From the NCBI GenBank assembly GCA_018817585.1, contig JAHITE010000123.1, forward strand, positions 1,280 through 65,279: a stretch of DNA of 64,000 nt. The letters are read 5' to 3'. Position numbers and translations under genes: made by a program. Origin of the DNA: Candidatus Omnitrophota bacterium. GTDB lineage: Bacteria > Omnitrophota > Gorgyraeia > B26-G9. Below the pieces are notes generated by a model. The model did not search any database. It saw only the letters and a program-made list of their open reading frames with translations, and was not told where the DNA came from. This document shows, in pieces, positions 3,539 to 62,391 of this stretch. Each line of letters begins with the position of its first letter. Position 1 is the first letter of the stretch.

Positions 3539-5962
3539 TTAACCATTTGATGTTGTTCTAGTCAAGAATCCATTAGGATCATAGTAGAAAATTCCTGACA
3601 AAACACCTTGAGCATTGTAGGAGAAATTCTGTCTTCCACTAACATCAAAGGTAACTGAAGAAGTGATTGCACCTTCATTGTAGTTAACAGATTTCAACAT
3701 AAATCCATTCTTATCATAAGAATACTTAGATTGTAATGCGCCCTGAATAAATGAACCGTCAGCTTGTTTGGTCATTAAATATGATTCTGTCTGTTGTCCA
3801 TACTTGTTAAAGTATGTTCTGGTTGTCTCAGAAGTCCAAGTACCAGAAGGAATCGGGTCACCCTGATCATTATATGCCTTCATCACGGCAAAGCTGGTTG
3901 TATAGTGTAAGAATCCTTGAGCAGAGTAGGTATACTGCTGAACAAGCGCGGAATTTCCTTCTGGCGTATGATTCCATACCTGATTAGGTCTGGAATAAAC
4001 ATCATAAGTAATATGACTGACCAAGCTGCCTTCTCGCCCATAACTATTGGTCTGGTCTATGCCGCCATAGATATTATAGATGTTTTCCTGGTTCTTAAAT
4101 CCGCCGCCTTCAGCAATAGAACCATCAGCATTCACAGAATAATTAGCTACAGCATTCGCATTATAGTCAGCTCCTTGCGGATCAGTACTTTGCGCGTACT
4201 GATAGCCATCTTTAGTACTAACCCCGGTAAACAGCTGATAAGTAGCAGTTGCTTTTGAGTAAACATCAAAGGTTGTATATGAAGTTTGCACACCATTATT
4301 ATAGTTTACTGTCTGAGCTAATTGACCTCTATCATTATAGTAGTATTGGGTTGTTGTTACTCCTTTGAAGTTCTGAGACTCGGTTGGTCTACCGGTATTA
4401 TCATATATCAGGGATCCAGTAACAGCTTTATCTTCACCATAGTTAGTGGTTTTAGCAATAAAACCGTTTGAAGTATAGTAATTTTTCGATGTCTGAACCC
4501 CAACCTGATTATAGGTTGTTTCCGGACGTCCGTATTTATTATATACGCTGGTTCCTGTGTATACAGAAACATCATCAGAGGTATCAGTTGCCGTACCATT
4601 TGTATTCATTGAATACATTACCGCGCCGGTAACAAACCCAGTATTCGATGATCCAGAGAATTCAGATTTCCCATCCCATTCTGTACTATAAACAAATACC
4701 TGAGACACTGATGCGACTCCATTGTAAACAGAATAAGATGATACTGGTCTGCTCTTGCTGTCATATTCAGTATATCCAACTACCTGATAATAACCATGCT
4801 CAGTAACTCCCGCGGCATTAGTTACATCAACTGCCCATTGGCCAGTAGCAGCAGCATCTTCCTGAAACGCGAGATTTGTGGATTTAATCATAAATCCTGC
4901 GTCATTATACTCAAAACTGCTTACTACATAACCTTCAGCATTATTGGTATGAGTTTGTTTTCCATAATCATTATAATAGGTTGTTCCAGTTACCGGACCT
5001 TTAGCTTCAGTGCCTGGATCACCATATGATGTACTGCTTGCCAGAAAACCATTATCATTATACTGAAAATCCTGAACAATCGCGTTTCTTTCATTATAAG
5101 CTGCTACTGGTCTGCCGTATTCATTAAAAACGGTTTTACCTGTATAGCTATTGTTAATCCCATAATTGTTTGTTTGGCTCATGAATCCAGCACGAGAATA
5201 TACAAATGCCGTTGTCTTTTCACCAAGTTCATTAAAGGATTTTTCCTGCTGACCATATTTATTAAATGTTGTGTATCCAGAAACCTCATTATTATCTCCA
5301 TAACTAACCGTCGCTGTTAAAAATCCAGTATTAGCTGCCTGACCAACTAGTCCAAGAGTACTTGTTTCACTGGAAGCATCTGTATTGTATATAAAATCCT
5401 GGACTTTTGTAGCTGTTCCTGATTCAGAAACAGTATAAGAACCAACTGGTCTACCCGCGCCATTATATTCTGTATATCCAGTTAAAACTTCATTATTACC
5501 ATAACTGTTTGCCTGAGTCATAAAGCCTTGCGTATCATACGCGTAATCAGCTACTTTTGCTCCGACTTCATTAGTCTGGTTAACAGCCTTACCATAAGCA
5601 TCATAAGTTGTTATTCCGGTTAAAGTCGGTGCCATTGCTCCATTCTGAAGACTTGGTTCACCATAAGTATTGCTTGATTCCATAGATCCGGTAAACGCGT
5701 TATAATTAAAATTCTGGACTAATGTTCTCCGATTATTATAACTTTCTTCCGGACGGCCAAGATCATTAAAAACAGTACTACCTGTGCTAGCATTATCTAG
5801 TCCGTAATTGTACGCTACATCCATGAAACCTTGACTTGAATAACGATACTTTGTTGTTGTTTCCCCAAATTCATTTTTAGAAATAAGCTGTCTTCCATAT
5901 TTGTCAAATTCTGTGCTTCCGGTAACAACTCCATCTTTTCCATAGTTACTTGTGCTAGTCAA
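3539..5962 (-). pseudogene. C-terminal 807-codon continuation of the giant YD/Rhs-like repeat protein; same frame as 6038..10315, separated only by one TAA
   Basis: The roughly 40-aa repeat (YxYNxxGFLxxTxxYGxxxxVTGxTxFDxYGRPxxxYN) runs straight across the stop. No ATG and no RBS: the ORF track begins it on a TTG. Frame phase matches (5962 and 10315 are both 1 mod 3). Confidence 0.6.
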
Positions 5963-6037
5963 GAATCCCTGTTGATAGACATATGTCTGGATAAGCGCTC
6001 CTTGACCTTCCCCTTGAGTATCCCAATAACACTGATA

Positions 6038-9000
6038 TTACTCTATCGGACGAGAATTATCATTAAACAAGGTATATCCGGTTACAGCATAAAAACCGCG
6101 CTGACTATCGCCGTTTGTCGAATCAGAAAGATCATTCAGATTATTATGAACAGCATTAACTGCCACTGAATCAGCTGCATAGCCTATCTCAGCAGTTGAA
6201 TCGGTTGTAGTATCTGCGACAAATGCCAATGATGTTGTTTTGGTCATAAATCCCTGAGAGTCGTATTCATAAGCAGATACAGTAATCCCCATATCATTTT
6301 CGCCTCTTAGCGCTTTACCATAACCATCGTATATTGTCTTTCCAGTCTTAGCCTGATTTTCCCCATAACTGGTACTTGCCTCTAAGAATCCGTATTGATT
6401 ATACTCAAATGTCTGAGTTAATCCCTTTAAACCAGTACCGCTTGAGGCCATATTAAAAGCTTCAGTCGGCCTGCCCATTTTATTAAACACGGTTTTTCCA
6501 GTATACGCGCCCTGCAGCCCATAGTTATTTGTCTGTTTAAGGAAACCTTGATTTGAATACACATATTTGGAGACAACAGCGTTGTCTTCATTATAAGTGA
6601 CGTTTTGTCTGCCATAATCATCAAATATTGTTTTTCCATTATCCACACCATTACGACCAAAGTTATTAGTCTGAACCATGAACCCATCTTTGTATACATA
6701 TTCCTGAACTTTTGCCGACTGCTGTCCGTTAACGCCGTCATTATAAACAGAATATGTAGCAACTGGTTTGGACTTTTCATTAAATTCCGTGTACCCAGTC
6801 AGAATAGTATTTACTGTAGACACTCCATCAACAGTAGTAACCATAATGTTACCATTTTCGTCTGTTTGCGCGCCATAGGACTCAGACTTTGTCATAAAAC
6901 CACGTTCATTATAGGCATATTGCTGAATTGTTACACCTTCCGCATTATCTACAGAAGTAGCTTTGCCATATTTATCATATTCAGTTTTACCTGTATATGT
7001 TGGCATATATTTAGCAGTTGCTGAAGTTGTTGATTTAGCAAACGCAATTAAATCTGTTCTATCAACATCACCATCTGAATCATAATCAAAACTAGCAACA
7101 TAATTAGCATCACCGGTAACTGATTTATAAGCAGCGCTAAAAGCAGTTGAACCGCTAAAAGAATCCTCAAACAAAGCCTGATCAGTCGCGTCAACAGCTC
7201 CGTCATCATTAAAATCAAAATCAGTAGAATAAGTTCTATCTCCTCTGACTGATCCAAGGGCCTCACTAAATTTATCCAATTTAGCAAGATCTACTACTGT
7301 TGCCTCGCCCCAAGTCATACTTGATTCAAGAAAACCATCATCGCCATAAACAAATGTTTGAGTTACCCCTTTTAAGTATGGCTGCCAAGCTGGATTATCC
7401 AGATCAGCTGAAGTTAATCCTTCGGAAAGAGCTGAAACAAGATCATCAGGAAGAGCAACTGCTTTAGAACCATAATTATTAAACGCGGCAACTGGTCTTG
7501 AAAAATTATCAAAAACAGTAAACCCGGTAACTCTTTTATTCGCTCCATAAGAAACTGTACTCGAAAGGAATCCGCCTGCAGAATAGTTATATTTTTGAAC
7601 TACTTGATCTGTTTCCCCAAGCGCTTCATCTCCTTTATTATAAGATTCGTTTTGTCGTCCATAGCTATCAAAAGTAGTATATCCAGTAACCGCCTGTTGA
7701 TCTTTATTCTCGCCACTAGTAGCAATTACGCCATCTCCATTTGAATCATAAAAATCACCAAAGGTTGTTGTTTTCTGAACAAAATTTGAATAATTTGTTG
7801 ATGTAACATTCACATAAATTGCTCTGCCATTGGCATCCACTTCACCAGTAGCTTGTTTTTCTGTTTTTTCATAAGAATATGAGAATCCCTGGGTTTTTGC
7901 GGTCTGAATACCCAAACTTGCCCCATTATCATCAAATCCCTCATACATTGAGTAAGAAGCCATTGGTTTGCCATCTCCGCCAAAAACAGTATAGCCTGTT
8001 ACTGTAGGAAGATTAACTGTTGGCAGATCCAGATCCCCAACAGGACGATCCGCGGAATTAGAAAGCTGCGCAACAGACCAATCAGTTACGTTTTCTACTG
8101 CTGTTCCCGCTGCATTCCAAGCCTGCGCTCCGCCAAATTCAGAAACCTGAACTTTATAAGCAGAAATAGCCGCACTGGAGTTTCCGTCTTGTTCTAAAGA
8201 CTGACCAAGCATATGATACGCAGTACCAACACTGTTGATTAAATATTCATTACCGCCTTTTGCTCCGTCACTAAACCACATAATTATTGTTAACGCGACC
8301 TTTTTAGTTAATTCAGCATCTCCTGAATTCCAAGCATTCCACATTGCGGACACAAAAGCACTGTCACTGAGATTTCCACCAGTAGCAGCAATAGCTTCTC
8401 CTGTATATGCCGGATCCCACAATGCTAAAATTGCTTCCTGATCAGCCATGGTTGAGGCAATAGATTCATTGACCCCTTCTGCCGCACTCATGGTAAAGCT
8501 TTGAACAAGCATCCCGCATTCATCATATACATATTTTTGCACTAAGCTTCCAGTGTGATTATAAACATCTGTTGGCTTACCCTTATCATTATATAATGTG
8601 GAACCGGTTGTAACTCCGTTTTCTCCGAGATTCTTTGTTTCGGTTAAGAATCCGTCCGCATTATAAATAAACAATTGGCTTCCTGAGCCTTGAGCATTGC
8701 TAGCAGTAGTTGGTCGGCTTAAACGATCAAATGTTGTCGTACCAGTAGTTTTACCACCAAAACCATAACTAACTGTTTGCGCAAGAAAACCATTGCTGTT
8801 ATATTTATACTCCTGTTGTTTTTCCATCACAGGATTACTGTCCGCATCCACAACAATATTACCCAAATCATCACGCACCAAAGCATAAACAGCTTCTGGT
8901 CTGCCTTTTTTGTCATATTCAGTTTTAGAAGTTGTAATGTACTGAAAATTACCACTTGCGTCTAAAACTGCCTCGCCATAAGCTACATCATTTTCATCAG

Positions 9001-10315
9001 TATTTCTAATAATACCCAGCGAATATGTGCTCTCTAATGTCCCGTTTGCTTTATACGCGTATTCCTGAATTTTTACTTTATTCCCGCCATCACCTAACTG
9101 CCAAACCTCATCCGGACGGCCTTGCCCGTCAAAAAGCGTCATCGAAGTTCTTGCCTGAGAGCCCAAAGAATTGATCGCGCCCAAAGAAAATGTCTGCTGT
9201 AAAAAGCCATGCTCATTATATTGATATTCCTGAACTTTGACTCCAACATGATTATATGTTCCGGAAACCTGTCCATACTCATTATAATCGGTCCAGCCAG
9301 TAACAATACCTTCTTCTCCTAAATTAGTAATTGAAGTGATATTATTCGCGGCGTCATAATTATAAGCACCGATTGGCACCAAATGATCAACTACTGTTTC
9401 CCCGGTTAAAGGATCAATAACTTCATTACCATCAGCATCAACTTGATTAACAACATCAAAAATAGTGGTATAATATCCATTAACCACTTCCGTGATTTGA
9501 TTTGAAATCACATCAGTAACTGAAACCAAGATCTCATTAGAATCATACTGAAATGTTTTAGTAATTGTACCCTCAAGATTTGTTACATAGGAAGGACGAA
9601 TACCGTCTTGTTCAAAATGAGTTGTATTCCCGTTCTGATCAATAAATGTTTCCAATATTCCTTTTGAATTATAAGTATAGTCCCCAACCTGCACAGCAGT
9701 TCCGTCCATATTTGTATACATAATATAATCAGGACGCTGATTAGAGTCGTATATTGTTTTATTTCCCCATTGATCAGTAGAGCTTACCATTATTTCAACG
9801 CCATTTTTATCCAAACCATATTCATACGTAATTAAACCTTGTGCTGACGTGGATAATAACTGGCCATATTGGCTATATTGTCTTGTTTCAACAAGCGCGC
9901 CATTTTCATTATAAAGCTTAACAGTCGCGCCATCAAGTTCATACTTATAAGTTAAACTTTCACCGGTTTCGTCATTTTTAACTTTAATAGTTGCTCCGTT
10001 TAAAGTATAACTAACCTCAGTATAACCTTCCGCGGTTTTACTTACCTGAGCCGAAGCCCCTTCTCCCGAGTAAATATAAAGATCACCATTGGAAGTGGTA
10101 ATTACCTTTGGGGGAGGCGCTACTTGCTGATTCAGATCAGCTGATTCACTTTGGTCTGCAACCTGACCGCCAAATACCCCTTGAATTACTTCCTGGGACA
10201 TTAGCATGTCTTCCATTGCAGTTATATCAAAAGCAAACGCGAGATTCATGGTTGTCACATTAACAATAAAACAAACAAGCACTAAATAACTATAAAAACG
10301 AATATATTTGTTCAT
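6038..10315 (-). CDS. giant secreted YD/Rhs-like repeat protein, N-terminal 1425 codons (signal peptide, YD-like repeats, non-repeat insert, dockerin-like Ca-binding module)
   Basis: N-terminal signal peptide MNKYIRFYSYLVLVCFIVNVTTMNLAFA; dozens of degenerate YD-type repeats; AGGAGA RBS ahead of the ATG; ends at TAA 6038-6040 in mid-repeat. Confidence 0.75.
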   Translation of the reverse strand: MNKYIRFYSYLVLVCFIVNVTTMNLAFAFDITAMEDMLMSQEVIQGVFGGQVADQSESADLNQQVAPPPKVITTSNGDLYIYSGEGASAQVSKTAEGYTEVSYTLNGATIKVKNDETGESLTYKYELDGATVKLYNENGALVETRQYSQYGQLLSTSAQGLITYEYGLDKNGVEIMVSSTDQWGNKTIYDSNQRPDYIMYTNMDGTAVQVGDYTYNSKGILETFIDQNGNTTHFEQDGIRPSYVTNLEGTITKTFQYDSNEILVSVTDVISNQITEVVNGYYTTIFDVVNQVDADGNEVIDPLTGETVVDHLVPIGAYNYDAANNITSITNLGEEGIVTGWTDYNEYGQVSGTYNHVGVKVQEYQYNEHGFLQQTFSLGAINSLGSQARTSMTLFDGQGRPDEVWQLGDGGNKVKIQEYAYKANGTLESTYSLGIIRNTDENDVAYGEAVLDASGNFQYITTSKTEYDKKGRPEAVYALVRDDLGNIVVDADSNPVMEKQQEYKYNSNGFLAQTVSYGFGGKTTGTTTFDRLSRPTTASNAQGSGSQLFIYNADGFLTETKNLGENGVTTGSTLYNDKGKPTDVYNHTGSLVQKYVYDECGMLVQSFTMSAAEGVNESIASTMADQEAILALWDPAYTGEAIAATGGNLSDSAFVSAMWNAWNSGDAELTKKVALTIIMWFSDGAKGGNEYLINSVGTAYHMLGQSLEQDGNSSAAISAYKVQVSEFGGAQAWNAAGTAVENVTDWSVAQLSNSADRPVGDLDLPTVNLPTVTGYTVFGGDGKPMASYSMYEGFDDNGASLGIQTAKTQGFSYSYEKTEKQATGEVDANGRAIYVNVTSTNYSNFVQKTTTFGDFYDSNGDGVIATSGENKDQQAVTGYTTFDSYGRQNESYNKGDEALGETDQVVQKYNYSAGGFLSSTVSYGANKRVTGFTVFDNFSRPVAAFNNYGSKAVALPDDLVSALSEGLTSADLDNPAWQPYLKGVTQTFVYGDDGFLESSMTWGEATVVDLAKLDKFSEALGSVRGDRTYSTDFDFNDDGAVDATDQALFEDSFSGSTAFSAAYKSVTGDANYVASFDYDSDGDVDRTDLIAFAKSTTSATAKYMPTYTGKTEYDKYGKATSVDNAEGVTIQQYAYNERGFMTKSESYGAQTDENGNIMVTTVDGVSTVNTILTGYTEFNEKSKPVATYSVYNDGVNGQQSAKVQEYVYKDGFMVQTNNFGRNGVDNGKTIFDDYGRQNVTYNEDNAVVSKYVYSNQGFLKQTNNYGLQGAYTGKTVFNKMGRPTEAFNMASSGTGLKGLTQTFEYNQYGFLEASTSYGENQAKTGKTIYDGYGKALRGENDMGITVSAYEYDSQGFMTKTTSLAFVADTTTDSTAEIGYAADSVAVNAVHNNLNDLSDSTNGDSQRGFYAVTGYTLFNDNSRPIE
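7045..7225 (-). other. dockerin-like / EF-hand pair Ca-binding module inside the YD-repeat protein
   Basis: Two 12-residue loops, DFNDDGAVDATD and DYDSDGDVDRTD, each followed by a hydrophobic helix (QALF / LIAF): the classic dockerin duplicated-loop pattern. Confidence 0.5.
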
Positions 10316-11058
10316 GACTGCTCTCCTTTCATAATTTTAAAATTATAAGTTGAAATAAAAAAGTGATAATCAGAATTTAATATTATAGTAATATGATTAA
10401 ATAATAATATCGTAAAATTTTTAGCCATCTAACAAACTCCCTCCTTTCCCTTTTATTTTTATAGACAAAATAATAGCCAAACTGCTTAATTTTCGTCAGC
10501 CCGGCTGTCATAGCTTATAGTCGCGTTGTCGGTGCGCTCGGCGATCATTGCTTCAGCTTTAGACCCGTAGCTTTGCCCCAGCTTTACTAGCCAGGTCCCG
10601 CCGCATTTTGGCGGGAGTCCCCATCTTTCAATGAGTTTGCCTTTTCGGATTACTCCAAAAAACTAAACTTATGAAAAGTCTTTAATTGTAGACATAATAA
10701 TTAATATTTATAAAAGACTAATCATTTAGCATCTCAGAGCTTAATTTGCGGATACAAATAGACTTAGATTTAGAGGACTGTTTTTTTCGAGGATAATAAA
10801 TTCGTATTTGGATAAAAATAGGGTTACAAGTATAAATATTTTATTTTGTTCCCTCTACGAAACAATCCAGTCCCTCTTGACCATTGCCATACACAAATTG
10901 GCGCTCTTTTACTTCTAATTAAATATACCATGAATTCAAAACTTTTGCAAATTTAATAAAATTTATTAAAACTACTATTATTAGTACATTACTAATTATA
11001 ATTAAAAACTGTTTTAATAACTTTTTAAGCATTATTTTAGTTTAAAAAACACTGACAA

Positions 11059-13364: not shown

Positions 13365-14660
13365 TTAAATCCTTTCCGTACGAATTGCCACACTTTTTCT
13401 TTTTATAACCGGCAAATTATTAATCTCAAGCAAAGCCTGCGCAATGTCTTTTTCCTTGGCATCATGCGTCATCATTACCACATGAACTGATTGCTCTTGT
13501 CTTCTGCCTTTTTGAATAACACTGTAAATACTAATATTGTTTTTACCTAAGATAGCCGCGATCTGCGATAAAACCGCTGGTTCATCCAAAGCGGAAAATC
13601 TAAAATAATAACGGGTTTCAATATTATCTATTAAATTAACTTTTAACTTTTCAGGATCAATATTAACCAGACAATTATCTTGCCTTAATGAACCCTGCAT
13701 TTTTTGAGCAATAGAAATAATGTCCGAAACAACCGCGCTGGCTGTTGGTAATTGGCCGGCTCCCGGACCATGCAGCATTTGTTCACCGACAAAATCACTG
13801 CGTAAAAGTATCGCGTTGGAAACGCCGTCAACATTAGCCAATATATGCTTTTTCGGTAAAAGCGTGGGATGAACTCTTAATTGCACTGAACCTTCTGATT
13901 TTTTAGCAATTGCCAATAACTTTATACAATAGCCCATTTCCGCGGCATAACGAATATCACATAAATCTATATTTTCAATACCCTCAACATAAACATCTTT
14001 AAAATCAACTTCATGCCCAAAACTCAGTCTGGCGAGAATTGCGATTTTATGCGCCGAATCACCACCATTAATATCCAGACTGGGATCACTTTCCGCGTAT
14101 CCTTTTTTTTGCGCTTCTCTTAAAGCGATTTTAAAATCACAGCCTTTTTGCGCCATCTGGGAAAGAATATAATTGCTCGTTCCATTAATGATTCCATAAA
14201 CAGTTTCTACGCGATCAGCCACCAGCCCTTCTCTTAAAGTGCGGATAATGGGAATCGCCCCGCCAACACTGGCTTCATAATAAACATCCACCCCATTTGC
14301 TTTTGCCGCTTCAAATATTTCCGCGCCTTCTTCAGCCAGCAAAGCTTTATTGGCCGTAACCACAAATTTTTTATTTTTAAGCGCTTGGAGGATAAACTCT
14401 TTTGCCGGATGAATTCCGCCGATCAGCTCAACAACTATCTGAATATTTTGATCATTAAGTATTTTCTGAACATCCGATGTAAGAATATTCCGGTCAATAT
14501 CAAGCCCGCGAGTTGATTCAATATCTAAATCACATATCCAGGCAAGACTGATATTTAATCCCAGTTTTTTTTCCAGGGTTTTAGCCTTCTGCTGGAGAAC
14601 TTTAACCACTCCGCTGCCGATTGTGCCAAAACCAATTAAACCAACATTAATTTTGTTCAT
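13365..14660 (-). CDS. hom: homoserine dehydrogenase with C-terminal ACT domain
   Basis: NAD-binding [13 protein letters not shown], homoserine dehydrogenase catalytic core, C-terminal ACT regulatory domain; about 430 aa. Confidence 0.85.
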
Positions 14661-15079
14661 TTTTTCTCTTTGTCTATTTTTGCCGACAAATGAATTTTAT
14701 TATCTTCACTGGCGCAGTTTTTAATTGTCTGTTCAAGAATCAACAAATCCTTATCATCAACTTTTATAAATTTAATCCCAATATCAAATAATAATTTTTT
14801 ATTTTTTTCCTGTTGCACATAAACAACTTCTGCCAAAACCTCTACCAAATGAGCAACCTTAGGTAAACGTAAAGTCACATGGAGAATTGTTCCCATCGGG
14901 AAATTATAATCAGTGGTAAAACAAATACCGCCTAAACTCACATTACGGGTAAGCGTCATATCAGTTTTATTAATTTCGCCAGGATAAACATAATAACTAA
15001 CTACGAAGTTAGTGTTTATCCTGATAAATTGGCGTCTTTCCTGAGGAGTATAGTAACCACGAGAATCAGATGTTTGCAT
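14657..15079 (-). CDS. PilZ-domain protein (c-di-GMP effector), first gene of the threonine operon
   Basis: PilZ motifs RRQFIR (RxxxR) and NVSLGG (D/NxSxGG); 4-nt overlap with hom. Confidence 0.6.
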   Translation of the reverse strand: MQTSDSRGYYTPQERRQFIRINTNFVVSYYVYPGEINKTDMTLTRNVSLGGICFTTDYNFPMGTILHVTLRLPKVAHLVEVLAEVVYVQQEKNKKLLFDIGIKFIKVDDKDLLILEQTIKNCASEDNKIHLSAKIDKEKK

Positions 15080-25204: not shown

Positions 25205-26179
25205 TTAGAATTTACAGGAAATGCCGAATTGGTGCAGATAATCCTCATTGCCTACCGCAGGATCCTGCCAATAAACAAACGTATAGTCAAAGTAATAACA
25301 TACAGGATGCGTTACAAAAAATTCCGCATACTGCCAGCCCAATCCCAAAGAGTAATATTTACTGGAATCCATGCTTGAATTAGGATTATGCGCTCCCAGC
25401 CTCAGAGAGAAATCGTCATTAAAATAATGTTCCATGCCCAAGCGTACATTTTGACTGTAATCAGATCCTCGATCCTGCGTATTACCAGTTAAATCATAAA
25501 TATCACAAGTTAATACAGTAGACTCATTCATATAATAAGCCAAACCCGGACGCCAGACTCTGATCAATCGACTATTTACCCCATGAATCGTAAAAGTCGG
25601 CTCATTAATATTTTCCACCAATAAACCCAAAGCCATTTTTTCCGACATATACCAGAGAAATCCCGCGTTTAAACTTATTGCTGTATCGCTGGAACTAATC
25701 CCGGGAATTTCTGATTTAAAATTAAAATAATTTAAAGAAACTCCCCAAGCCATATTTTCACTGGAAAAGAATTGACGGCCATAAGCAATACCTGGCTGCA
25801 TCAAAATTGTTTTACTGCGAGTTATTTCGTTTTCATAAGTACTGTTTTGATAATAGACCCCAACTGATCCGCTTTTAGAATCGGTCTGCCCCAGCTGCTT
25901 AGTATATACAATATAATCATCACTAATAAAATCACCAGTAATATAATCATTTCTCGCATTGATTGTTGCCGAAGCGCTAAATTCCTGGTCTTTTTGCCAG
26001 GCAAGACCAGCCGGATTCCAAGTACTGGCATTAGCATCATCAGCCAATGCGACAAATGCTCCGCCCATGGAAACCGGTCTGGCTCCGCCTTGAGCTGCCC
26101 AAACATTTTGATTACAAATAACCATTAACCCCATTATTAATAAAATAATAAAAAATCTTTTGCTTAAATATTTGCGCAT
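25205..26179 (-). CDS. outer-membrane beta-barrel protein, FadL/PorV-like
   Basis: Signal peptide; N-terminal motif RPVSMGGAFVALADDANASTWNPAGLA as in FadL/PorV-type barrels; alternating amphipathic strands; C-terminal Phe (..ISCKF). Stop/start abuts the peptidase gene. Confidence 0.55.
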   Translation of the reverse strand: MRKYLSKRFFIILLIMGLMVICNQNVWAAQGGARPVSMGGAFVALADDANASTWNPAGLAWQKDQEFSASATINARNDYITGDFISDDYIVYTKQLGQTDSKSGSVGVYYQNSTYENEITRSKTILMQPGIAYGRQFFSSENMAWGVSLNYFNFKSEIPGISSSDTAISLNAGFLWYMSEKMALGLLVENINEPTFTIHGVNSRLIRVWRPGLAYYMNESTVLTCDIYDLTGNTQDRGSDYSQNVRLGMEHYFNDDFSLRLGAHNPNSSMDSSKYYSLGLGWQYAEFFVTHPVCYYFDYTFVYWQDPAVGNEDYLHQFGISCKF

Positions 26180-28713
26180 TATAAATCACCTTTATTAAGC
26201 AGATCAGCTAATTTAACCAAAGAACTAAGACCATAGCGTACTGCTTTTTTAGCCGCGTCATTAGCTCTGATCATATCTGCCAGTTTTGGCCCAATTATAT
26301 AATAAACAGCCACAAATTCCCTGCCTCGATAATCAGCCATTAATTGTTTATCTCTAAATTTCCGCAGTAATACCACTTCCGGAGCTTGTTGGTCTCCATA
26401 GCAGGCTGTTGCCACAAAACAACTACTACTGCTGCTCGATGAATCAGCACTGCCTGAGCCTCCTAATACAGTTGTGCTGGCCCGGTTATTAGCAGCCACC
26501 GCTCCTTCATAAGTAGTCCCATTATAGCCAAAAGCAACATAATGATAAGTTGTATCAGCCTTAACATCAGTATGATTATAAGTTTCGGTTGTTCCTGGCG
26601 TAGCAGCCTTAGAAACCAGCAATGTACCGTCAGTCTCACTGGTAGGATAGGTTCCGTCCGTGCGATAGCGAATCATTACCTGAGTTAAATCCGCCCGGAT
26701 TGAATTTTTCCAGGATAAAGTCACCCAGCTGCTGTTGGCAAAAGCAATATTATTTGCTGTAAAATTTGTTGGTGATAAAAAAGCCGCGCTTAAAGGAGTT
26801 TGCGGATCGCCTAATAAATTAGTCGCGAAATAAGCCCAGCGCTCAGCATCATATGAGGCAACCAAGCCAATTGTTTCCTGCTTTGCCAATTGTAATGCTT
26901 TGCCGATATTTACATTTCCATCACGCACCACTGAGTCCCAGAATTCGCGATGAATCCGCTGCGATGCGCCATTAGTCCCTCCGGGATTATACCAGCCATA
27001 CCTTGAGTTGCCGATAAACGAAAATGCCCCATTAGCTTCTGTAGTAAAATGCTCTAAAATACAATCTGAAGCACCATAAATCCCGTCACTCTGCCGATTA
27101 TCAAAAGCTCCGGAATAACAGCCCTGAGTATAACCAAAAAAATACTCAGTGTTTGTTAAGCCATCAACATCAGCATTCGACATTGTCTTAGCAACTACAG
27201 TATTAGTAGCATGCCCCAAATGATTAATGACGTGAACACCCGCGTTAATAATTGCCACTAAACTGCTCGTAATCCAAGTAGCATCCTGATCATATAGATT
27301 ATTAAAACTAAAATAACCAGATTCTGACATACCGCTGGTGGAATAACCATTAGCGCTGGATCCATTACGAATTTCTTCCAAATATGGTTTTGCGTAAGTA
27401 TCTGTAACCAATTCACCCGCCATGCAAGCCCGGGTAAGATAATCCGCGTTAGAATTTTCATAAGCAATTGTTTTTTTTACAAAATTAGCCAACTCAGCCG
27501 TGGAATCAACCGGAGCCCGGCCAATATAGACCTCAGCAGTTAAATCAATACTCCCGCCGCCAGGCCCATCACCGATCTCTCCATATATCCCATTATTATT
27601 AAAATCAAAATCCCCATCAAAACAAGCATAATACATATCACAGGGAATATTATTATCAGGATCTAAATGTGCCGGGTAATCATTATTTACCTTGCCATAA
27701 AATCCTCTATAGGGAATTATCGGCGCTGCTTCGGTTTCTCCAGTAGCAATGCCACCGCCGTCAGCATCACCGACTAAAAGCACATATTGAGTTAAATTAT
27801 CTGTACAATAAGCAATAATAAAATCGCGCAGATTTCCCGCGTTATCCGATTTAGCAGTATAATTCGCATAAACCCAAGTTGTGTCAAATATTTCAGTAGA
27901 TATTCCCTTAGATTCTTTATGAGTTTTAAGATCATTCAGATTATTTACACCAACATAGTTTTTAAATCCTAAGCTCGTAATAATTAAATAATCGACCGTA
28001 GCTAAAGGAGCTGCCAATGAGGTTATAGCATTTTGACTATACGTACTAATATCTTCCGGATTATCTACAAAATCATTTACAGCCTTTTGATCAGCAGCAA
28101 TACCGCGATAAAACTTATTATTCGTACTCAGCGTCGCCAGCTCATCGGATAAGACAATATTAAGATTAAGATTATCATAATAAGCTAATTTACCAGTTGC
28201 CGGAATATATTCCACGGGAAAAAGATTAATAATCAGGATTTTATAACCACGCATTTCCTGCGTGGAAACAACTTTGTAGACAGATTCAGGATAAGCAGTA
28301 TTACGGCTATAGATTTCAGGATTAGGCAAAGTGGGATTAATCGGTCCCGCATAATCTGTTCGCGCTGGGGCTTGTGCCGGCTCAACAAAATAAGTACCGT
28401 AAACATATTTTTTACTGGTCCAGCCTAGAGTTACATTGCTGACTTTTTTCCCTTGAGGAATCAAATATTTTATGGTTTTAATTGGCAGCAAAGGTTCACC
28501 TGGTGCGGCAAAATTTTCCAAACCTTTAATTTTAACCCGATGATAATTATTTATTTTAGTAACTTCTACTGAATCAAGCTGTGTGCTAATCAGATTATTT
28601 TTAATTTTTAAAGAAAAACTCTGTTCTTCGCCAGCAGAATAAGCATTAAAATTAAATAAAAAAACAAAAACGCAAACACAGAAAAATATCCAGGTTGTTT
28701 TACTGCTGTACAT
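26179..28713 (-). CDS. secreted C25 (gingipain-like, clan CD) cysteine peptidase with FN3-like domain, poly-Ser linker and a conserved Cys-containing C-terminal domain
   Basis: Signal peptide; His-Gly/Cys dyad context INHLGHATNT ... GYTQGCYSGAFDN; FN3-like WxxLxW...Y..Y segment; SGSADSSSSSSS linker; C-terminal CFVATACYG...LLRKFRD...YY..GP..A domain. Confidence 0.6.
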   Translation of the reverse strand: MYSSKTTWIFFCVCVFVFLFNFNAYSAGEEQSFSLKIKNNLISTQLDSVEVTKINNYHRVKIKGLENFAAPGEPLLPIKTIKYLIPQGKKVSNVTLGWTSKKYVYGTYFVEPAQAPARTDYAGPINPTLPNPEIYSRNTAYPESVYKVVSTQEMRGYKILIINLFPVEYIPATGKLAYYDNLNLNIVLSDELATLSTNNKFYRGIAADQKAVNDFVDNPEDISTYSQNAITSLAAPLATVDYLIITSLGFKNYVGVNNLNDLKTHKESKGISTEIFDTTWVYANYTAKSDNAGNLRDFIIAYCTDNLTQYVLLVGDADGGGIATGETEAAPIIPYRGFYGKVNNDYPAHLDPDNNIPCDMYYACFDGDFDFNNNGIYGEIGDGPGGGSIDLTAEVYIGRAPVDSTAELANFVKKTIAYENSNADYLTRACMAGELVTDTYAKPYLEEIRNGSSANGYSTSGMSESGYFSFNNLYDQDATWITSSLVAIINAGVHVINHLGHATNTVVAKTMSNADVDGLTNTEYFFGYTQGCYSGAFDNRQSDGIYGASDCILEHFTTEANGAFSFIGNSRYGWYNPGGTNGASQRIHREFWDSVVRDGNVNIGKALQLAKQETIGLVASYDAERWAYFATNLLGDPQTPLSAAFLSPTNFTANNIAFANSSWVTLSWKNSIRADLTQVMIRYRTDGTYPTSETDGTLLVSKAATPGTTETYNHTDVKADTTYHYVAFGYNGTTYEGAVAANNRASTTVLGGSGSADSSSSSSSCFVATACYGDQQAPEVVLLRKFRDKQLMADYRGREFVAVYYIIGPKLADMIRANDAAKKAVRYGLSSLVKLADLLNKGDL

Positions 28714-30220
28714 CTGCTTTATCCTCCCACTCCCGCCATTTATAAACAGCCTGATCCAAAGCTTTTTTCATTGCCTGATCCCGCTTTTCTTTAATATCCA
28801 TTTCCCCTGTATTCTGATTAACAATATGCGGCGTAATAAAAACAACTATTTCTTTTTTCACATTCGACGTGCCCTGGCTTTTAAAAAACATTCCCAAAAC
28901 AGGAATACTGCCGAGTATCGGCACTTTTGATTGCGTCTGCGATACAGTATCTTTGATTAATCCGCCCAAAACAATTGTTTTTCCGTCCCGAACAATAACT
29001 GTGGTATCTGCCTGGGTTGTGTCCACTGCCAAGGAATTATTAACCTCAGCCACCCTTCTGGCGGAACTGACTTCCGGATGGATTTTAAGCGTAATAAAAC
29101 CATCATCACTGATTTTCGGAGTAACTGTAAGCTTTACGCCCACATCAATAAATTTAGTTTCTTCGGTCTGGGTATTTGAATCTTTATCAATATAAGTTAC
29201 TAAATATGGTTCCGAAGCACCCACCAGAATATTCGCCTCATTATTATTCATAACCGTAATCCGCGGATTAGAAAGGATATTTGTATCTGTCATGCTTTCC
29301 AAAGCCTGAATCGTGACTTGATATTGATCAGCGCTCAGAGTTCCGATTCTTAAAGTTCCGCCATTACTCACGCTCACGGGTAAAACAGCAGACACATTGA
29401 TCGTATCTCCGTCCGTATCATTAAGATATTCCCAATTTACACCCAGCCCCTTACTTTTGTCAACTGAAATCTCTAAGATTTTGGCTTCAATCAATACCTG
29501 CTTTGATCTTTGATCCCAGTTTTTTATCAACATATCAATTTTAGCAATTGTCTCAGCAATCACCCGAATAACTAAACTATTTGTTCTTTCATCAATAAAG
29601 ATTTCCCCTTCCTGCTTGGGAATTAATTCCGTAAGCTTGGCCATCATTTCCTTAGCATCAGCATAATTTAAGTTATAAACCTTGGTAATCATCTTATGAT
29701 CAAGCGCCGCGATTACTTCTTCAGCCTCAGCAATATTAGCCACTGTATCCGTAATAATAACCTGATTAGCCATTGAATTTATTTCTACTCTGCCGCGGGG
29801 AGATTTTGTGGAATTAAGCACTTGTCTTAAATCCGCGACTTTGACATTGCTTAAGAAAAATACCCGGCTGACTAATTTTTCAGTCTGTTCCTGCTGCAAA
29901 ACATCCTGCTGCGTCAAAACCCGGATAATTCCCTTGTCTTCAACAAATAAAAAATTATTCGCGGTTAAAATAGCATCCAACGCCTGGATAACCGTAATAT
30001 CATTAAGCTTGGCAGTTACCCTCCCCTGCACATTCCGGCTGGCAACAATATTAACCTGCCCCTGTTCAGCCAGCAATCTTAAGACATCAAGAATACTCAT
30101 ATTCTTAACATCCAGATCGATTTTAACTGTATTCATATCCGCGGCATACAAATGTTCAAAAGAACACAGCAGGCTTAATAGCGTTAATAATGTGACTAAA
30201 CATAAAAATTTATTTTTCAT
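28700..30220 (-). CDS. secretin (GspD/PilQ family), compact form
   Basis: Signal peptide; N-domains plus secretin domain with C-terminal hallmark KKEIVVFITPHIV; about 500 aa; overlaps the peptidase gene by 14 nt. Confidence 0.8.
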   Translation of the reverse strand: MKNKFLCLVTLLTLLSLLCSFEHLYAADMNTVKIDLDVKNMSILDVLRLLAEQGQVNIVASRNVQGRVTAKLNDITVIQALDAILTANNFLFVEDKGIIRVLTQQDVLQQEQTEKLVSRVFFLSNVKVADLRQVLNSTKSPRGRVEINSMANQVIITDTVANIAEAEEVIAALDHKMITKVYNLNYADAKEMMAKLTELIPKQEGEIFIDERTNSLVIRVIAETIAKIDMLIKNWDQRSKQVLIEAKILEISVDKSKGLGVNWEYLNDTDGDTINVSAVLPVSVSNGGTLRIGTLSADQYQVTIQALESMTDTNILSNPRITVMNNNEANILVGASEPYLVTYIDKDSNTQTEETKFIDVGVKLTVTPKISDDGFITLKIHPEVSSARRVAEVNNSLAVDTTQADTTVIVRDGKTIVLGGLIKDTVSQTQSKVPILGSIPVLGMFFKSQGTSNVKKEIVVFITPHIVNQNTGEMDIKEKRDQAMKKALDQAVYKWREWEDKADVQQ

Positions 30221-30723
30221 AGTCTTAACTCGAATATTTCATCATCTTTTTTCAGAATAACTCTGTCTGATTTAACTTCCTTAACAATAAAACCCTCAAC
30301 ATTTTCATTGCCATAACAGTAAAAAGAGCGATCATTAGTCACATTGCTGATTATTGCCTGAGGGCCTTGCGCTCCAGAAACAATACCCAAAAGCTGTAAT
30401 TGCCCGAGGCTTAAATCCGCTTGTTCGGTTTTTACCGCTAAATCTTTTTTTTGTCCGGAATTAATTCCAGATTGCGTGATAAATAATTTTCTGCGCGTAA
30501 GAATCCGTTCATAATATTTTTCTGATTTTTTTACTAGCTCTAAACTCGCTATTGCCGGCATTGTTTTTTTACCCATTTTAGTCTCAATATCCATATTCTG
30601 GACACTAAAAAATAATATGCTGAAATAAATCAGGATTAATCCCGCGAAAAACATTAATCCTATATTAACACGATTTATATATTTATCTTTAAAAATAATT
30701 CTATTCAATAAATCATTTGCCAT
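30217..30723 (-). CDS. PilP/GspC-like inner-membrane secretin-interacting protein
   Basis: N-terminal TM helix; C-terminal beta-domain ...LQLLGIVSG..PQAIISNV..GFIVKEVKSDRVILKKDDEIFELRL resembling PilP/GspC HR domain; 4-nt overlap with the secretin gene. Confidence 0.45.
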   Translation of the reverse strand: MANDLLNRIIFKDKYINRVNIGLMFFAGLILIYFSILFFSVQNMDIETKMGKKTMPAIASLELVKKSEKYYERILTRRKLFITQSGINSGQKKDLAVKTEQADLSLGQLQLLGIVSGAQGPQAIISNVTNDRSFYCYGNENVEGFIVKEVKSDRVILKKDDEIFELRL

Positions 30724-30732
30724 AATAAAAAA

Positions 30733-31254
30733 TTAGTCCTTCGCGAGAATAGCACTTAACAGTAACTGCACTTTTAAAGGCTCGCCTTCTGCCTGAGCAT
30801 TAATTTGCGTGTGTTTAATTGAAAACATATATGGCGATTTGTCTAAAGCATAAAAAAAACTGCCCAAATTTTTTAATTCACCTTCTGTTTCCAATTTAAA
30901 ATCAAATTCATTATAGATACCATCTTCTTTTAGCGGAAATGGCTTTACATTGGTCACATTAAGTCCTGCCATTCCGGCTTTACTTTTAACATCCTGTAAA
31001 ATATCTGTTAGCGCTGGCTTGCCGGAATTGGCCTGAAATTTTTGAACAAAATCATTATATTCTTTTTCAATCACTGTTTTGCCATTAAGGATCTGATTTA
31101 TTTGACTTAAACCTGTTTCCGCGGCCTGAATCTTTGAATTAATTATAGTATACCGAGGATAAGCAAACTGGAAAAAGAAAAAATACAAGCCAATGCCTAA
31201 AATAAGACATAAGTATAATGACATTAGAAATAATTCTCTGCGCATTAAGCTCAT
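30733..31254 (-). CDS. PilO/GspM-like bitopic membrane protein
   Basis: N-terminal TM helix, coiled-coil segment, C-terminal ferredoxin-like region; size and position match PilO upstream of PilP-PilQ. Confidence 0.4.
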   Translation of the reverse strand: MSLMRRELFLMSLYLCLILGIGLYFFFFQFAYPRYTIINSKIQAAETGLSQINQILNGKTVIEKEYNDFVQKFQANSGKPALTDILQDVKSKAGMAGLNVTNVKPFPLKEDGIYNEFDFKLETEGELKNLGSFFYALDKSPYMFSIKHTQINAQAEGEPLKVQLLLSAILAKD

Positions 31255-32891: not shown

Positions 32892-33836
32892 ATGATAAAG
32901 AAAAATATATTTTCTATTGGTTTAGACAGTCAAACAATCGAATCGCTTTATGCTTATTTAGCTGATGGTTTTGATTTTATTCTTATTGAGACAGCCGAAG
33001 ACTTGATGAGTAAAATTAAAAAATACAAAGTAAGTTTAATGTTTTTAAACAATCATTTACCTGACTTTGATAACTGCCAAGAGCTGTGCATTGCTCTGCG
33101 TTCTCAGCCAAACACAGAAACAGTGCCTTTAATTGTCCTGACCAATGACCAGCCGGAATCACTTCAAAAAGAAAAAATCTCGCTGTTTCAAGCCGGGTTG
33201 ATTGACGGTTATTTTTCCATGCCCTTGAATGCTGAAGAAGTAACCGCGTACTCAAATGTTTTTCTACAGCGCCAGGCTTTACAAGAAGAACTGGAAGAAA
33301 CAAATAAACTGCTGTCCCAAATTTCTACCACTGATGAATTAATGCAAATTTATAACCGCCGCTATTTAATCCATCGCTTAGAAGATGAGCTGCTCAGAAT
33401 AAAACGCTATAATTATCCGCTTTCGGCAATTATGATTGATTTAGATTATTTTAAAAAGATAAATGACCAGTATGGGCACGCCCAGGGGGACAAAGCACTC
33501 AAAGGATTAGCGCTTTTTTTAAAGCAAAACATTCGGGCAATGGATATTCTTTGCCGCTATGGAGGCGAAGAAATTGTGATTCTCCTGCCCCACACCAATG
33601 CCAAAGGCGCTTCGCTGACTGCGGAACGCCTTCGTAGCCACATCAAGGCGCATAATTTTGGAGATAGCGACAATCCGCTCTGCTTTACTGTAAGTATTGG
33701 CCTGGTTACTTTTGACAGACAAGATGACCTCAATGTCGACAAAGTTATCAGCGCTCTTGATATCCAGCTTTATAAAGCCAAAAATAGCGGCCGAAATAAG
33801 GTTTGTGAAGTTCTATACAAAGACACTATCTTGTAA
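32892..33836 (+). CDS. diguanylate cyclase (GGDEF) with N-terminal phosphorylation-incompetent pseudo-receiver domain
   Basis: GGDEF domain with RYGGEEI active-site variant, I-site RAMD five residues upstream, substrate-binding region around KINDQYGH; the REC-like N-terminus has Asn where the phospho-acceptor Asp should be (LMFLNNHLPDFD). Confidence 0.75.
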   Translation: MIKKNIFSIGLDSQTIESLYAYLADGFDFILIETAEDLMSKIKKYKVSLMFLNNHLPDFDNCQELCIALRSQPNTETVPLIVLTNDQPESLQKEKISLFQAGLIDGYFSMPLNAEEVTAYSNVFLQRQALQEELEETNKLLSQISTTDELMQIYNRRYLIHRLEDELLRIKRYNYPLSAIMIDLDYFKKINDQYGHAQGDKALKGLALFLKQNIRAMDILCRYGGEEIVILLPHTNAKGASLTAERLRSHIKAHNFGDSDNPLCFTVSIGLVTFDRQDDLNVDKVISALDIQLYKAKNSGRNKVCEVLYKDTIL

Positions 33837-40500: not shown

Positions 40501-40899
40501 ATCTTCCTGAACACTGAAATCTTCCGGACTGATAAACATCTTGCGTTCTAAGAGAGTTTGCTGATTTTGCAGCTGATTACGAAAAGGTTCATAACAGGAA
40601 TTTTCTTTATCATTTATGCTTTTAATAAATGTTCTAAAACCGCGTCGGGAAGCAAACTGCCAGGCTTTATTCGCCGGAAAAAACTCAAGAATCGCGTTTT
40701 TCTTACTTTCCACGCCAAAACTGGCAATACCTTGACCGCGATTCACATAAAAAACCCACATCGGAATACCAAATAAGCCCGCAATCCCTGGAAAGAAACT
40801 TGCAAACGGTTTAGCCAAGTCATAATTGGTAATTACAAATTTTCCGTCATCCTGCAAATAGTATTCGACATTACGATCTTTCTTCACGCTTGCTCCCAT
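37552..40899 (-). CDS. large (alpha/alpha)6-type glycoside hydrolase/phosphorylase-like protein (GH94-related?), 1115 aa
   Basis: N-terminal beta-sandwich-like region FFPGIAGLFGIPMWVFYVNRGQGIASFG; central motif GNGNYRDVNQNRRDD resembling the catalytic Asp region of GH94/GH65-type phosphorylases; size similar to beta-glucan phosphorylases. Family assignment is tentative. Confidence 0.35.
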   Translation of the reverse strand: MGASVKKDRNVEYYLQDDGKFVITNYDLAKPFASFFPGIAGLFGIPMWVFYVNRGQGIASFGVESKKNAILEFFPANKAWQFASRRGFRTFIKSINDKENSCYEPFRNQLQNQQTLLERKMFISPEDFSVQEDNRTIGLKIEAKYFTMSNEPLGCLVRNLTIKNISNKPKSLEIIDGLAQVIPCGANDRFLKDIGRTIEAWMQVEFVTKFKAPFYKLAVDPSDSPQVLYIKGGNFYYSYANTNNSNKKTEFIVDPDVVFGQNKTFQYPRFFCQKNFKVPQEQITSSKTPSAFSYIDLVLKPQEEVTITSLIGYAREEAQLQALIAKANNNDFLINKACEYKQEVAKVQSNIFTKSGNSTYDLYCKQTYLDNVLRGGLAITLEGKEKSHVYHVYSRKHGDLERDYNNFLIEPTYLSQGNGNYRDVNQNRRDDVWFNPMVQDANIIVFFNLIQLDGFNPLVVYGDRFKLKDNQSFKNIKVVLEKKSDALRVEKFIKKQFALGDLFIFLEINGINLKVSKEKFLTELLSSCKRQQNAEHGEGFWVDHWTYNLDALESYLAIYPERLSDILLNKKQFVYFNNCVKVKNRDEKYILYNDMVRQYHAVGLDGVKDESEFCRAKNSDDWAIRTEQGNGSIYKTTLLSKMLCLLTNKMASLDAFGCGIEMEANKPGWYDALNGLPGLFGSSVCETFELKRLIDFILNCIEQLKLESDLLVSVPKELDDFIQGLVGLVNNYLKSKTKSREMLYWDKSYALKETYRKQISRGINGKLVDLKIKEIKAILMKMSAKLEISLANSKDKKTGLYHTYFINEVTKFNKIKTRDGFKKSKDGLFCVQPKQFKQKPLPLFLEAQVHALRCVQDAKKVKALYANTRKSALYDKPLKMFKVNASLEKVTKDIGRARVFTPGWLENESIWLHMEYKFILELLRNGLYEEFFTEFKNVLIPFQPAERYGRSILENSSFLVSSAFPDKTLHGNGFVARLSGSTAEFITMWLWMNVGQNPFRLNENKGLIARFEPALPAWMFTQEEAVFEYCLGKDKHVIIDLPKNSYAFKFLNSTLVIYHNPKNKNTYGKGGVKPLSMRIALDNGNRVNVESSVLDSEYAQMLRDGKISRIDVQLG

Positions 40900-61834: not shown

Positions 61835-61842
61835 AATATATT

Positions 61843-61883
61843 CCTCCTGCTATAAGTATACATAAAAATATACACTTTGTCAA
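61843..61883 (-). promoter_or_regulatory. consensus promoter, palindromic operator candidate and strong RBS for the prlF-yhaV operon
   Basis: On the minus strand: TTGACA, 17-nt spacer, TATACT, then AGGAGG 5 nt before the ATG. A GTATA...TATAC palindrome overlaps the spacer and -10. Confidence 0.55.
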
Positions 61884-62382: not shown

Positions 62383-62391
62383 AATTTACTC

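Follow-up and report, generated by a model that had tools for sequence, protein, structure and literature searches.

The gene considered here, a long YD-repeat gene, lies on the minus strand of a 64,000-nucleotide stretch of DNA from a bacterium of the Omnitrophota (contig JAHITE010000123.1; the whole of this 64-kb stretch is called the window). Its product carries a dockerin-type module with two putative calcium loops, and its leader carries a candidate cyclic di-GMP (c-di-GMP) riboswitch. The surroundings of the gene were compared across eight loci, the window and seven related loci (L001-L007), at 42-82% protein identity, and all eight share one gene order: PilZ, hom, thrC, iPGM (sometimes with cstA), the YD gene, kdsA, kdsD, kdsC and lptB. 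The YD gene is a vertically inherited core-genome gene and not a mobile toxin cassette or part of a variable hotspot. The adjoining kdsA/kdsD/kdsC/lptB genes and the lineage itself also agree with an earlier note on this DNA, made from the letters alone, in which the host was taken for a diderm.

How far does the gene extend? The NCBI record, entitled 'hypothetical protein KKD05_11400 [Candidatus Omnitrophica bacterium]', covers just the 1425-aa product that ends at an in-frame TAA. Residue 1425 is not the protein terminus, for the TAA is in frame with an 833-codon continuation. Joined, the two parts of the gene (Table 1) come to 2259 codons and run colinear with orthologs of about 2160-2300 aa that have no interruption. 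The closest genome match, the Candidatus Omnitrophota metagenome-assembled genome (MAG) JAHITY010000059.1 (L001), has one unbroken, colinear open reading frame (ORF) of 2262 aa that is 80% identical. The column of the window TAA holds Ser, Thr or Ala in 21/21 aligned relatives, with TCT as the codon in L001, and the TAA is the sole lesion across the 2259 codons, the downstream part being free of stops and frameshifts. It is a single nonsense change, presumably recent, in which case the product in the window genome would be cut after residue 1425 with the module retained, or else an assembly error or strain artefact. An alternative genetic code or readthrough was considered and rejected, as TAA is an ordinary stop in other window ORFs and the relatives have a sense codon.

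Table 1. Features of the YD-repeat locus in the window, with the leader aptamers of orthologous loci listed under the locus concerned
Feature	Position	Strand	Basis or remark
YD-repeat gene, first part	6038-10315	minus	1425 aa plus stop; NCBI MBU1088106.1
YD-repeat gene, continuation	3539-6037	minus	in-frame, stop-free; 833 codons including the final stop
Single in-frame TAA splitting the gene	6038-6040	minus	sense codon in relatives
Sec-type signal peptide (N-terminal), MNKYIRFYSYLVLVCFIVNVTTMNLAFA then FD	10232-10315	minus	by eye; segment conserved in L001
Helical insert, about 160 aa (residues about 609-769)	8009-8491	minus	self-HMM, family conservation
YD unit split by the module, N-terminal half (residues 986-1017)	7265-7360	minus	strand 996-1009 enters the module
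Dockerin-type module (residues 1008-1098)	7022-7294	minus	Pfam Dockerin_1, AF2, family profile against PDB
Putative calcium-binding loop 1, DFNDDGAVDATD (residues 1034-1045)	7181-7216	minus	sequence motif
Putative calcium-binding loop 2, DYDSDGDVDRTD (residues 1077-1088)	7052-7087	minus	sequence motif
YD unit split by the module, C-terminal half (residues 1105-1124)	6944-7003	minus	strand 1101-1113 exits the module
c-di-GMP-I riboswitch aptamer (RF01051), two expanded hairpins	10492-10651	minus	Rfam 42.2 bits, gathering score 35
Terminator-like hairpin (10470-10511) plus U-rich tract	10461-10511	minus	fold -14.9 kcal/mol, z -3.2
Ortholog aptamer, L001	9645-9828
Ortholog aptamer, L002	9618-9742
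Ortholog aptamer, L003	9819-9939
Ortholog aptamer, L004	5699-5819
Ortholog aptamer, L006	5711-5833
Ortholog variant aptamer, L005	5690-5811	plus

The bulk of the protein is a repeat scaffold. An iterative search with a hidden Markov model (HMM) built from the protein itself resolves 34 YD units of 41-46 aa, each a double hairpin with the consensus QxYxYxxxGFLxxxxxYG-[loop]-TGxTxFDxxGRPxxxYN. RHS_repeat (PF05593, cut-off 22) matches the downstream part at 29 bits and an N-terminal piece at 23 bits, and TIGR01643 (cut-off 15.8) reaches 15.6 bits in the window and 20.7 bits in the ortholog P0061. The N-terminus consists of the signal peptide followed by repeats, and the protein terminates within a repeat, upstream of kdsA. 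Pfam and NCBIfam searches of the two gene parts gave no match to the RHS core (TIGR03696/PF03527), to PF25023 or to PF20148, the patterns DP.GL and P....DP.G are absent from both parts, and no C-terminal toxin, N-terminal plug or PAAR domain was found in the protein; P0061 likewise gave no RHS core match in NCBIfam or Pfam. Nor is there an immunity gene, a VgrG or a PAAR nearby. The earlier view that an Rhs core and a DPxGL terminus are lacking is therefore borne out for both gene parts, and its corollary, that this is no classical Rhs toxin, agrees also with the single gene in conserved synteny and the riboswitch upstream.

The scaffold is interrupted at the loops of its hairpins. The dockerin module had been described as lying between YD-repeat blocks; instead it splits a single unit at the hairpin loop, and in the predicted structure it is a domain grafted on the tip of a YD beta-hairpin, in the YG...TG loop. 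At the same loop position of another unit (residues 593-608 and 770-789) there is a helical insert of about 160 aa, which has no Pfam or NCBIfam match. This corresponds to a non-repeat insert of roughly 150 aa that was said to precede the module: the insert exists and is conserved, but it is not adjacent, as it lies some 240 residues upstream with about 2.5 units between. Several other YD units bear insertions of 18-40 aa at that hairpin-loop position. The helical insert has a pattern, AW.AL..GD.EKA...ALK, that by eye is like that of tetratricopeptide repeats, and a second copy is present in the relative P0007.

The module itself was first noticed through its two Asp-rich loops in the interval 7045-7225, the plus-strand translation of which is riddled with stops; the ORF that bears the motif is the first part of the minus-strand gene. 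Both loops fit the dockerin/EF-hand pattern D-x-N/D-x-D-G-x-x-D-x-x-D, with Asp at position 12 in each, and their starts are 43 residues apart. The pattern D.[ND].DG..D..D has an expectation of 5.7e-4 per protein of this composition and occurred in at least two copies in 0/20,000 shuffles, so that a chance motif is rejected on both counts, and no further loops of this form occur in the six frames of the window. Two 12-residue loops, each followed by a helix, are present as had been claimed, with the helices at residues 1043-1052 and 1086-1096 in an AlphaFold2 (AF2) model. Each loop is in addition preceded by a helix and a GDxxY motif, and the module is longer than the earlier description of it, running in the order helix0, GDxxY, calcium loop 1, helix1, helix2, GDxNY, calcium loop 2, helix3.

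Is this a dockerin, and by what evidence? The Pfam model Dockerin_1 (PF00404), which has a gathering cut-off of 22.9 bits, gives 18.9 bits against the whole 1425-aa ORF, and whole-protein Pfam scoring consequently misses the module. When the segment is excised the score rises to 28.3 bits (79 aa), 25.1 bits (517 aa) or 31.0 bits (93 aa), and Dockerin_1 is then the sole Pfam family over its cut-off, whereas all EF-hand models stay below theirs (EF-hand_6 is the best, with 16.6 bits against 25, and EF-hand_5/_1/_7 reach at most 11 bits). The same model matches 20/21 orthologous modules of the family at E<=0.01. For the excised segment, though not for the whole ORF, the HMM search that had been proposed as a check supports a duplicated module of dockerin type. 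The thrombospondin type-3 (TSP3)-like repeat that had been held up as its refutation is rejected, as a scan of the segment gave no match to the TSP3 models (PF02412, PF18884) even at E<=10, and an FG-GAP/VCBS propeller repeat is rejected too, since the loops are followed by helices and not strands in the AF2 model and there is no FG-GAP match.

Sequence comparison with the Protein Data Bank (PDB) points the same way. A single-sequence search put the C. cellulolyticum dockerin 2vn5_B on top, a weak match at E 0.033. A family profile made from the alignment of 21 orthologous modules found 2y3n_B at 3e-6, the type II X-dockerin 5k39_B/5m0y at 9.7e-6 and 2vn5_B/2vn6_B at 2-3e-5 (2.3e-5 for 2vn5_B). 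Dockerins thus take the five top places (3e-6 to 6.5e-5), and EF-hand proteins, in the form of secretagogin, set in at 6.8e-5. Profile positions 1-47 align without break to 'INMVDVMEISKVFGTRAGDEEYVAELDLNMDGAINLFDIAIVIRHFN' of the type II dockerin, that is, to its linker helix, GDxxY, loop 2 and helix 3, and it follows that the pre-loop helix with GS..GDxxY is the dockerin linker-helix/second-repeat signature and no accident.

Structure prediction, also proposed in the earlier note, gave a confident four-helix module. An AF2 run on residues 944-1160 without an alignment was unusable, with a predicted local distance difference test score (pLDDT) of 38, and was replaced by a run on residues 955-1165 with an 18-row family alignment, which has a mean pLDDT of 87.6, a predicted TM-score (pTM) of 0.71 and a pLDDT of 92-97 across the module. 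Besides the two helices that follow the loops, the model has helices at 1010-1019 and 1056-1062, and antiparallel strands (996-1009 and 1101-1113) flank the module. When the composite model was compared by Foldseek, the strands matched RhsA, teneurins and Tc BC and the helices matched dockerin chains, the top non-YD matches all being dockerins: 5m0y_B (probability 0.99, E 0.1), 5k39_B, 4u3s_B and 3kcp_A. Taken together, the module is a genuine dockerin-type F-hand pair, slightly ahead of plain EF-hands and by a small margin.

A HMMER search of 1.84 billion cluster representatives returned 48 matches, among them about 10 long relatives at 36-46% identity, and when the 90% clusters were searched with an alignment as seed, about 20 members of full length (2160-2303 aa) were recovered, each from a MAG of Omnitrophota or of the Planctomycetes-Verrucomicrobia-Chlamydiae (PVC) group. 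Next in rank, at E 1e-51 and weaker and 22-35% identity, come classical RHS proteins that carry TEN_YD-shell and DUF6531 domains. The YD family is small, Omnitrophota-specific and vertically inherited, and has no RHS core (TIGR03696), DPxGL, plug or toxin. NCBI gives P0061 the name 'dockerin type I domain-containing protein', and this member is alone among the roughly 20 in having such a name and a precomputed PF00404 match.

The state of the module was scored in 23 aligned family members. Unit 1, comprising the helix, GDxxY, loop 1 and helix 1, is kept in 21 of them, and these 21 modules show no variation at D1 and D12 of loop 1, at the D and Y of GDxxY or at the Gly that follows helix 1, while N3, D5 and G6 of loop 1 are at least 90% conserved; positions 10-11 of the calcium loops vary among orthologs. 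Loop 2 is intact in 13/23 members, truncated in 8/23 and absent in 2/23. Where it is truncated the DxDxD half is deleted and the following helix retained, and the two members that lack it (P0006 and P0009) carry no part of the module, their YD hairpin being closed directly. In a neighbour-joining tree built without the module columns, which included seven of the eight one-loop members, six of these form one clade, P0003 stands separately, and P0006 is nested among two-loop members. These positions imply that the second calcium site has been lost at least two times and the whole module at least once, with the scaffold, the locus and the riboswitch persisting. Between the window and L001 the module has a ratio of nonsynonymous to synonymous substitution rates (dN/dS) of 0.225. 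Where it occurs the module is held by purifying selection, yet it is accessory.

The other matches of the 1.84-billion search (P0019-P0048) are mostly proteins of 190-250 aa with a variable N-terminus and 2-4 tandem units of the form F..AFGS..GD.NY...D.D.DG.I..D...F. Within the P0012/P0019-P0048 group there is one 2049-aa protein with about 20 loops, most members are unnamed, and one is from a gammaproteobacterial MAG. Dockerin_1 matches 22/27 of the module-only proteins and the main EF-hand models match 12-19/27. The helix-GDxNY-loop-helix unit is thus a widespread, self-contained calcium module that is not limited to pairs. The small tandem-unit proteins form an uncharacterised family of dockerin-unit arrays, one of which also bears a Peptidase_C25 domain.

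The 5' leader of the YD gene contains, in the same orientation as the gene, a predicted aptamer of the c-di-GMP-I class, and a c-di-GMP-I-class aptamer scores over its gathering score in 7/8 loci (L001 42.2, L002 48.2, L003 62.3, L004 64.1 and L006 50 bits). A competing terminator hairpin followed by a U-rich tract was predicted in all four of the leaders that were folded (window, L001, L002 and L003), and that of L002 has -24.3 kcal/mol and z -6; it was found by manual inspection and folding, a simple scan having missed its 9-10-nt loop, which is longer than 8 nt. In each of the four the 5' arm of the hairpin is the 3' strand of the aptamer, and in the window this arm (10495-10511) lies inside the aptamer. 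With the arm shared in this way, the ligand-bound aptamer would sequester it and prevent termination, which would make the element a transcriptional ON switch, with high c-di-GMP switching the YD gene on. Other c-di-GMP proteins encoded in the window are a PilZ protein (14657-15079), a GGDEF cyclase (32892-33836) and a 7TMR-HD phosphohydrolase (51491-53149). Our search of the literature found no link between c-di-GMP riboswitches and either YD/Rhs genes or the Omnitrophota.

What, then, is the protein for? The reading we favour, and consider somewhat better than even, is that of a toxin-less secreted YD scaffold, induced by c-di-GMP, in which the calcium knob on the hairpin tip and the helical insert act as contact surfaces for attachment or for the organisation of the envelope or matrix. 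On this reading the gene would be transcribed when c-di-GMP is high and the aptamer wins over the intrinsic terminator, and the protein would be exported by Sec, as its signal peptide, recognised by eye, suggests. Extracellular Ca2+ would then fill both DxNxDGxxDxxD loops, which would fold and rigidify a knob of four helices that stands out from the YD beta-sheet, beside the second loop-inserted helical domain. The knob would provide a surface for stabilisation or contact in an adhesin or envelope-associated scaffold that c-di-GMP induces, and the contact could be cell to cell, cell to host or with matrix. As no cohesin partner was found in the window or the related flanks, such a knob, stabilised by calcium and serving adhesion or structure, is more probable than an assembly of the cellulosome kind. 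The reading agrees with the proposal, made for other Omnitrophota proteins, that non-cellulosomal dockerins are adhesins (PMC10066038; bioRxiv 10.1101/2023.11.21.568195).

A number of points weigh against it. The distinction between a dockerin and an EF-hand pair would seem to be a matter of degree, with a small margin, since EF-hand proteins trail the dockerins only narrowly in the profile search. Foldseek returned nothing at E<=1e-3 for the composite model, all its matches being at E 0.03 or worse, and the extra N-terminal helix with GDxxY and the 43-residue spacing depart from the textbook type I layout. Calcium binding by the two loops is predicted from the motif. The adhesive role is suggested by context, export beyond the periplasm and surface anchoring are putative, and no sorting domain of known type was found in the YD protein. 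The riboswitch is not uniform, for the L005 leader scores best as the variant c-di-GMP-I-GGC (RF03167, 67.9 bits) and the L007 leader (5636-6000) gave no aptamer even at E<=1. The interrupted gene could be non-functional in the window genome, and the search for cohesins that is described next spans about 64 kb and the related-locus flanks, not the genome as a whole. As a separate matter, the L005 variant and the L007 leader suggest that in the course of the family's evolution the ligand recognised or the mode of control may have changed.

Does the module dock onto a cohesin? As a functional dockerin it would bind a cohesin-bearing partner, the gene of which would lie in another part of the genome or in that of a host cell, and would so dock the YD scaffold to the cell surface or bring other proteins to it, in a cellulosome-like assembly of a diderm. 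The module is, after all, most similar to bona fide cohesin-binding dockerins, and the window, like 13/23 relatives, has its two loop-helix repeats intact. Loop positions 10-11 are the specificity positions in known dockerins, and their variation between orthologs is as would be expected under co-evolution with a partner. A precedent exists in that cohesin-dockerin systems have been inferred in Cloacimonadota, a non-Firmicute candidate phylum (PMC8542988). As for the partner itself, no Pfam Cohesin match was obtained among the roughly 50 ORFs of at least 120 aa scanned in the window, the flanks of six related loci (L002-L007) have none in their precomputed Pfam lists, and the published accounts of Omnitrophota dockerins that were consulted (including PMC10066038; bioRxiv 10.1101/2023.11.21.568195) report dockerins and no Pfam cohesin modules. 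The L001 neighbourhood, compared by ORF map only and without a Pfam scan, has the same gene order. The loss of loop 2 in the six-member clade and in P0003, and of the module in P0006, would moreover scarcely be expected of a docking device that is essential, and the helix-GDxNY-loop-helix unit is found in arrays of 2-20, including odd numbers, in unrelated small proteins. The favoured reading requires no dedicated cohesin partner, and cohesin docking in this form is unlikely.

Equally improbable, in our estimate, is a generic EF-hand-type Ca2+ sensor or switch that would alter the conformation of the YD scaffold, with neither partner binding nor kinship to dockerins. It draws on the sub-threshold EF-hand_6/_5/_1/_7 matches, on the EF-hand proteins that the profile search lists from E 7e-5 onwards, on the four helices of the AF2 model, which form helix-loop-helix twice in the manner of an EF-hand pair, and on the module-only proteins that match EF-hand models as well as Dockerin_1. 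Against it, every EF-hand Pfam score is under its cut-off and Dockerin_1 over its own, the alignment of the pre-loop GDxxY and linker helix is specifically to the second repeats of dockerins, and the residue at loop position 12 is Asp. Classical EF-hands prefer Glu at this position and dockerins Asp. Extracellular Ca2+ would also normally be saturating, and a structural role is on that ground more plausible than a sensing one.

A bolder version of the scaffold idea would make the YD family a new class of toxin-less surface scaffold, switched on by c-di-GMP through the leader riboswitch, in which the dockerin and the helical insert dock in a Ca2+-dependent manner on a non-canonical cohesin-like partner or on a surface structure of a host or prey. 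We regard this as doubtful, and slightly more so than the two preceding alternatives; if it were true, these ultra-small, host-dependent diderms would attach by way of a cohesin-dockerin-like interaction that is gated by c-di-GMP.

Less probable again is that the gene is a decaying remnant, a pseudogene in the window genome by way of its in-frame stop, with a module that is functionless there. The TAA at a column where aligned relatives encode Ser, Thr or Ala, and the NCBI call of just the 1425-aa product, speak for it. Against this, there is a single lesion in 2259 codons; dN/dS between the window and L001 is 0.16 upstream of the TAA, 0.23 downstream and 0.18 gene-wide, with the downstream 833 codons open; the module lies upstream of the TAA and would still be made; the riboswitch, terminator, ribosome-binding site and signal peptide are intact; and the TAA may be an error of the MAG consensus or of sequencing. 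Finally, a classical Rhs/YD polymorphic toxin or Tc-like cocoon with an overlooked toxin or core is highly improbable. The RHS_repeat and YD_repeat_2x matches, the classical RHS next relatives and the Foldseek matches to RhsA, teneurins and Tc BC speak for it; against it, the protein ends inside a repeat with no RHS core, DPxGL, PF25023, PF20148 or C-terminal toxin, with no immunity gene, VgrG or PAAR nearby, and in a conserved, syntenic locus rather than a variable hotspot.

How does the protein compare with systems that are already known? Non-cellulosomal dockerin-like modules, that is, PF00404 outside cellulosomes, were reportedly described by Peer et al. in 2009. The nearest counterparts are the dockerins of giant Omnitrophota ORFs, proteins of more than 30 kaa (thousand amino acids) with 9-15 dockerin copies and TSP3 repeats (PMC10066038; bioRxiv 10.1101/2023.11.21.568195; 10.64898/2026.06.07.730766), which are non-cellulosomal and are proposed to be adhesins. 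They share with the present case the phylum, the duplicated DxNxDGxxDxxD loop-helix module, a secreted, repeat-rich, non-enzymatic host protein, the lack of a reported cohesin partner and the proposal of adhesion. Here, however, there is a single copy within a YD hairpin of a 2.26-kaa protein, together with a riboswitch, fixed synteny and an extra N-terminal helix with GDxxY.

Among cellulosomal dockerins the best profile matches (E 3e-6 to 2e-3) are the type II X-dockerin of C. thermocellum (5k39_B/5m0y_B) and the type I modules 2y3n_B, 2vn5_B and 1ohz_B. The succession of linker helix, G(D/x)xxY, 12-residue loop and helix is common to these type I and type II dockerins and to the module. The cellulosomal dockerins are terminal modules of Firmicutes enzymes or scaffoldins with demonstrated cohesin partners, whereas the module here is internal, belongs to a diderm, has the 43-residue spacing and a second loop that is dispensable in relatives, and no cohesin was found in the window or the related flanks. 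With Rhs effectors of type VI secretion systems (T6SS), Tc BC, teneurins and WapA the protein shares the beta-hairpin repeat YxYxxxGxL...TG.T.FD..GR and the RHS_repeat/TIGR01643 matches. It differs from these in lacking the core aspartyl-protease motif, an encapsulated toxin, an N-terminal plug and delivery domains, in its about 34 units of a regular 41-46-aa double hairpin, in bearing large domains in its hairpin loops, and in occupying a fixed single-gene locus and not a polymorphic hotspot.

Adhesins controlled by c-di-GMP riboswitches include gbpA of Vibrio cholerae (Vc1) and, in Clostridioides difficile, CD2831/CD3246 and pilA1 (c-di-GMP-II). As in the gbpA/CD2831-type systems, a c-di-GMP aptamer leader precedes the gene of a large secreted protein and the terminator layout is compatible with an ON switch. 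The phylum differs and the protein family is unrelated, ligand binding and polarity are predicted in the present case, and of the orthologs here one has the GGC variant and one no aptamer.

Dockerins outside cellulosomes were thus already known in the Omnitrophota, and one ortholog was already labelled as dockerin-containing by NCBI. Our literature searches found no description of a YD protein, devoid of core and toxin, with a single dockerin grafted in one of its hairpins, of conserved c-di-GMP riboswitch control of a YD family, or of a natural series of two-site, one-site and no-module forms. The Omnitrophota are uncultured, mostly ultra-small and apparently host-dependent. Their giant dockerin-bearing proteins have been proposed as adhesins without regulatory or partner evidence. 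The YD locus offers a smaller and more tractable case, with a conserved 2.26-kaa protein and one well-defined module, and its variants should be useful for comparative partner prediction. The candidate riboswitch would tie the YD protein to a sessile or attached programme, and the family illustrates that YD-repeat hairpin loops can host whole domains. If the module is merely a Ca2+-stabilised decoration, the gain is a modest improvement in annotation.

Elsewhere in the window, a minus-strand cluster (25205-31254) may serve secretion or a pilus and supply a surface protease: it contains a Peptidase_C25 of gingipain-like type, including the propeptide (26179-28713), besides a secretin (28700-30220), proteins like C of the type II secretion system (T2SS-C) and like PilO/T2SS-M, and a TraF_2-like ORF. 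A 1115-aa minus-strand ORF (37552-40899) has no Pfam match at E<=0.01 and no obvious repeats and looks cytoplasmic by eye, and represents a large uncharacterised protein. Near the edge of the window (61072-63947, minus) a YhaV-family toxin gene (61072-61605), a familyless ORF (62392-63120) and a truncated phage-integrase-family ORF (63573-63947) may mark the border of a mobile element. Nearly all genes of the window are on the minus strand and the GC skew is negative throughout the 64 kb (-0.09 to -0.24), which together indicate strong co-orientation with one replichore.

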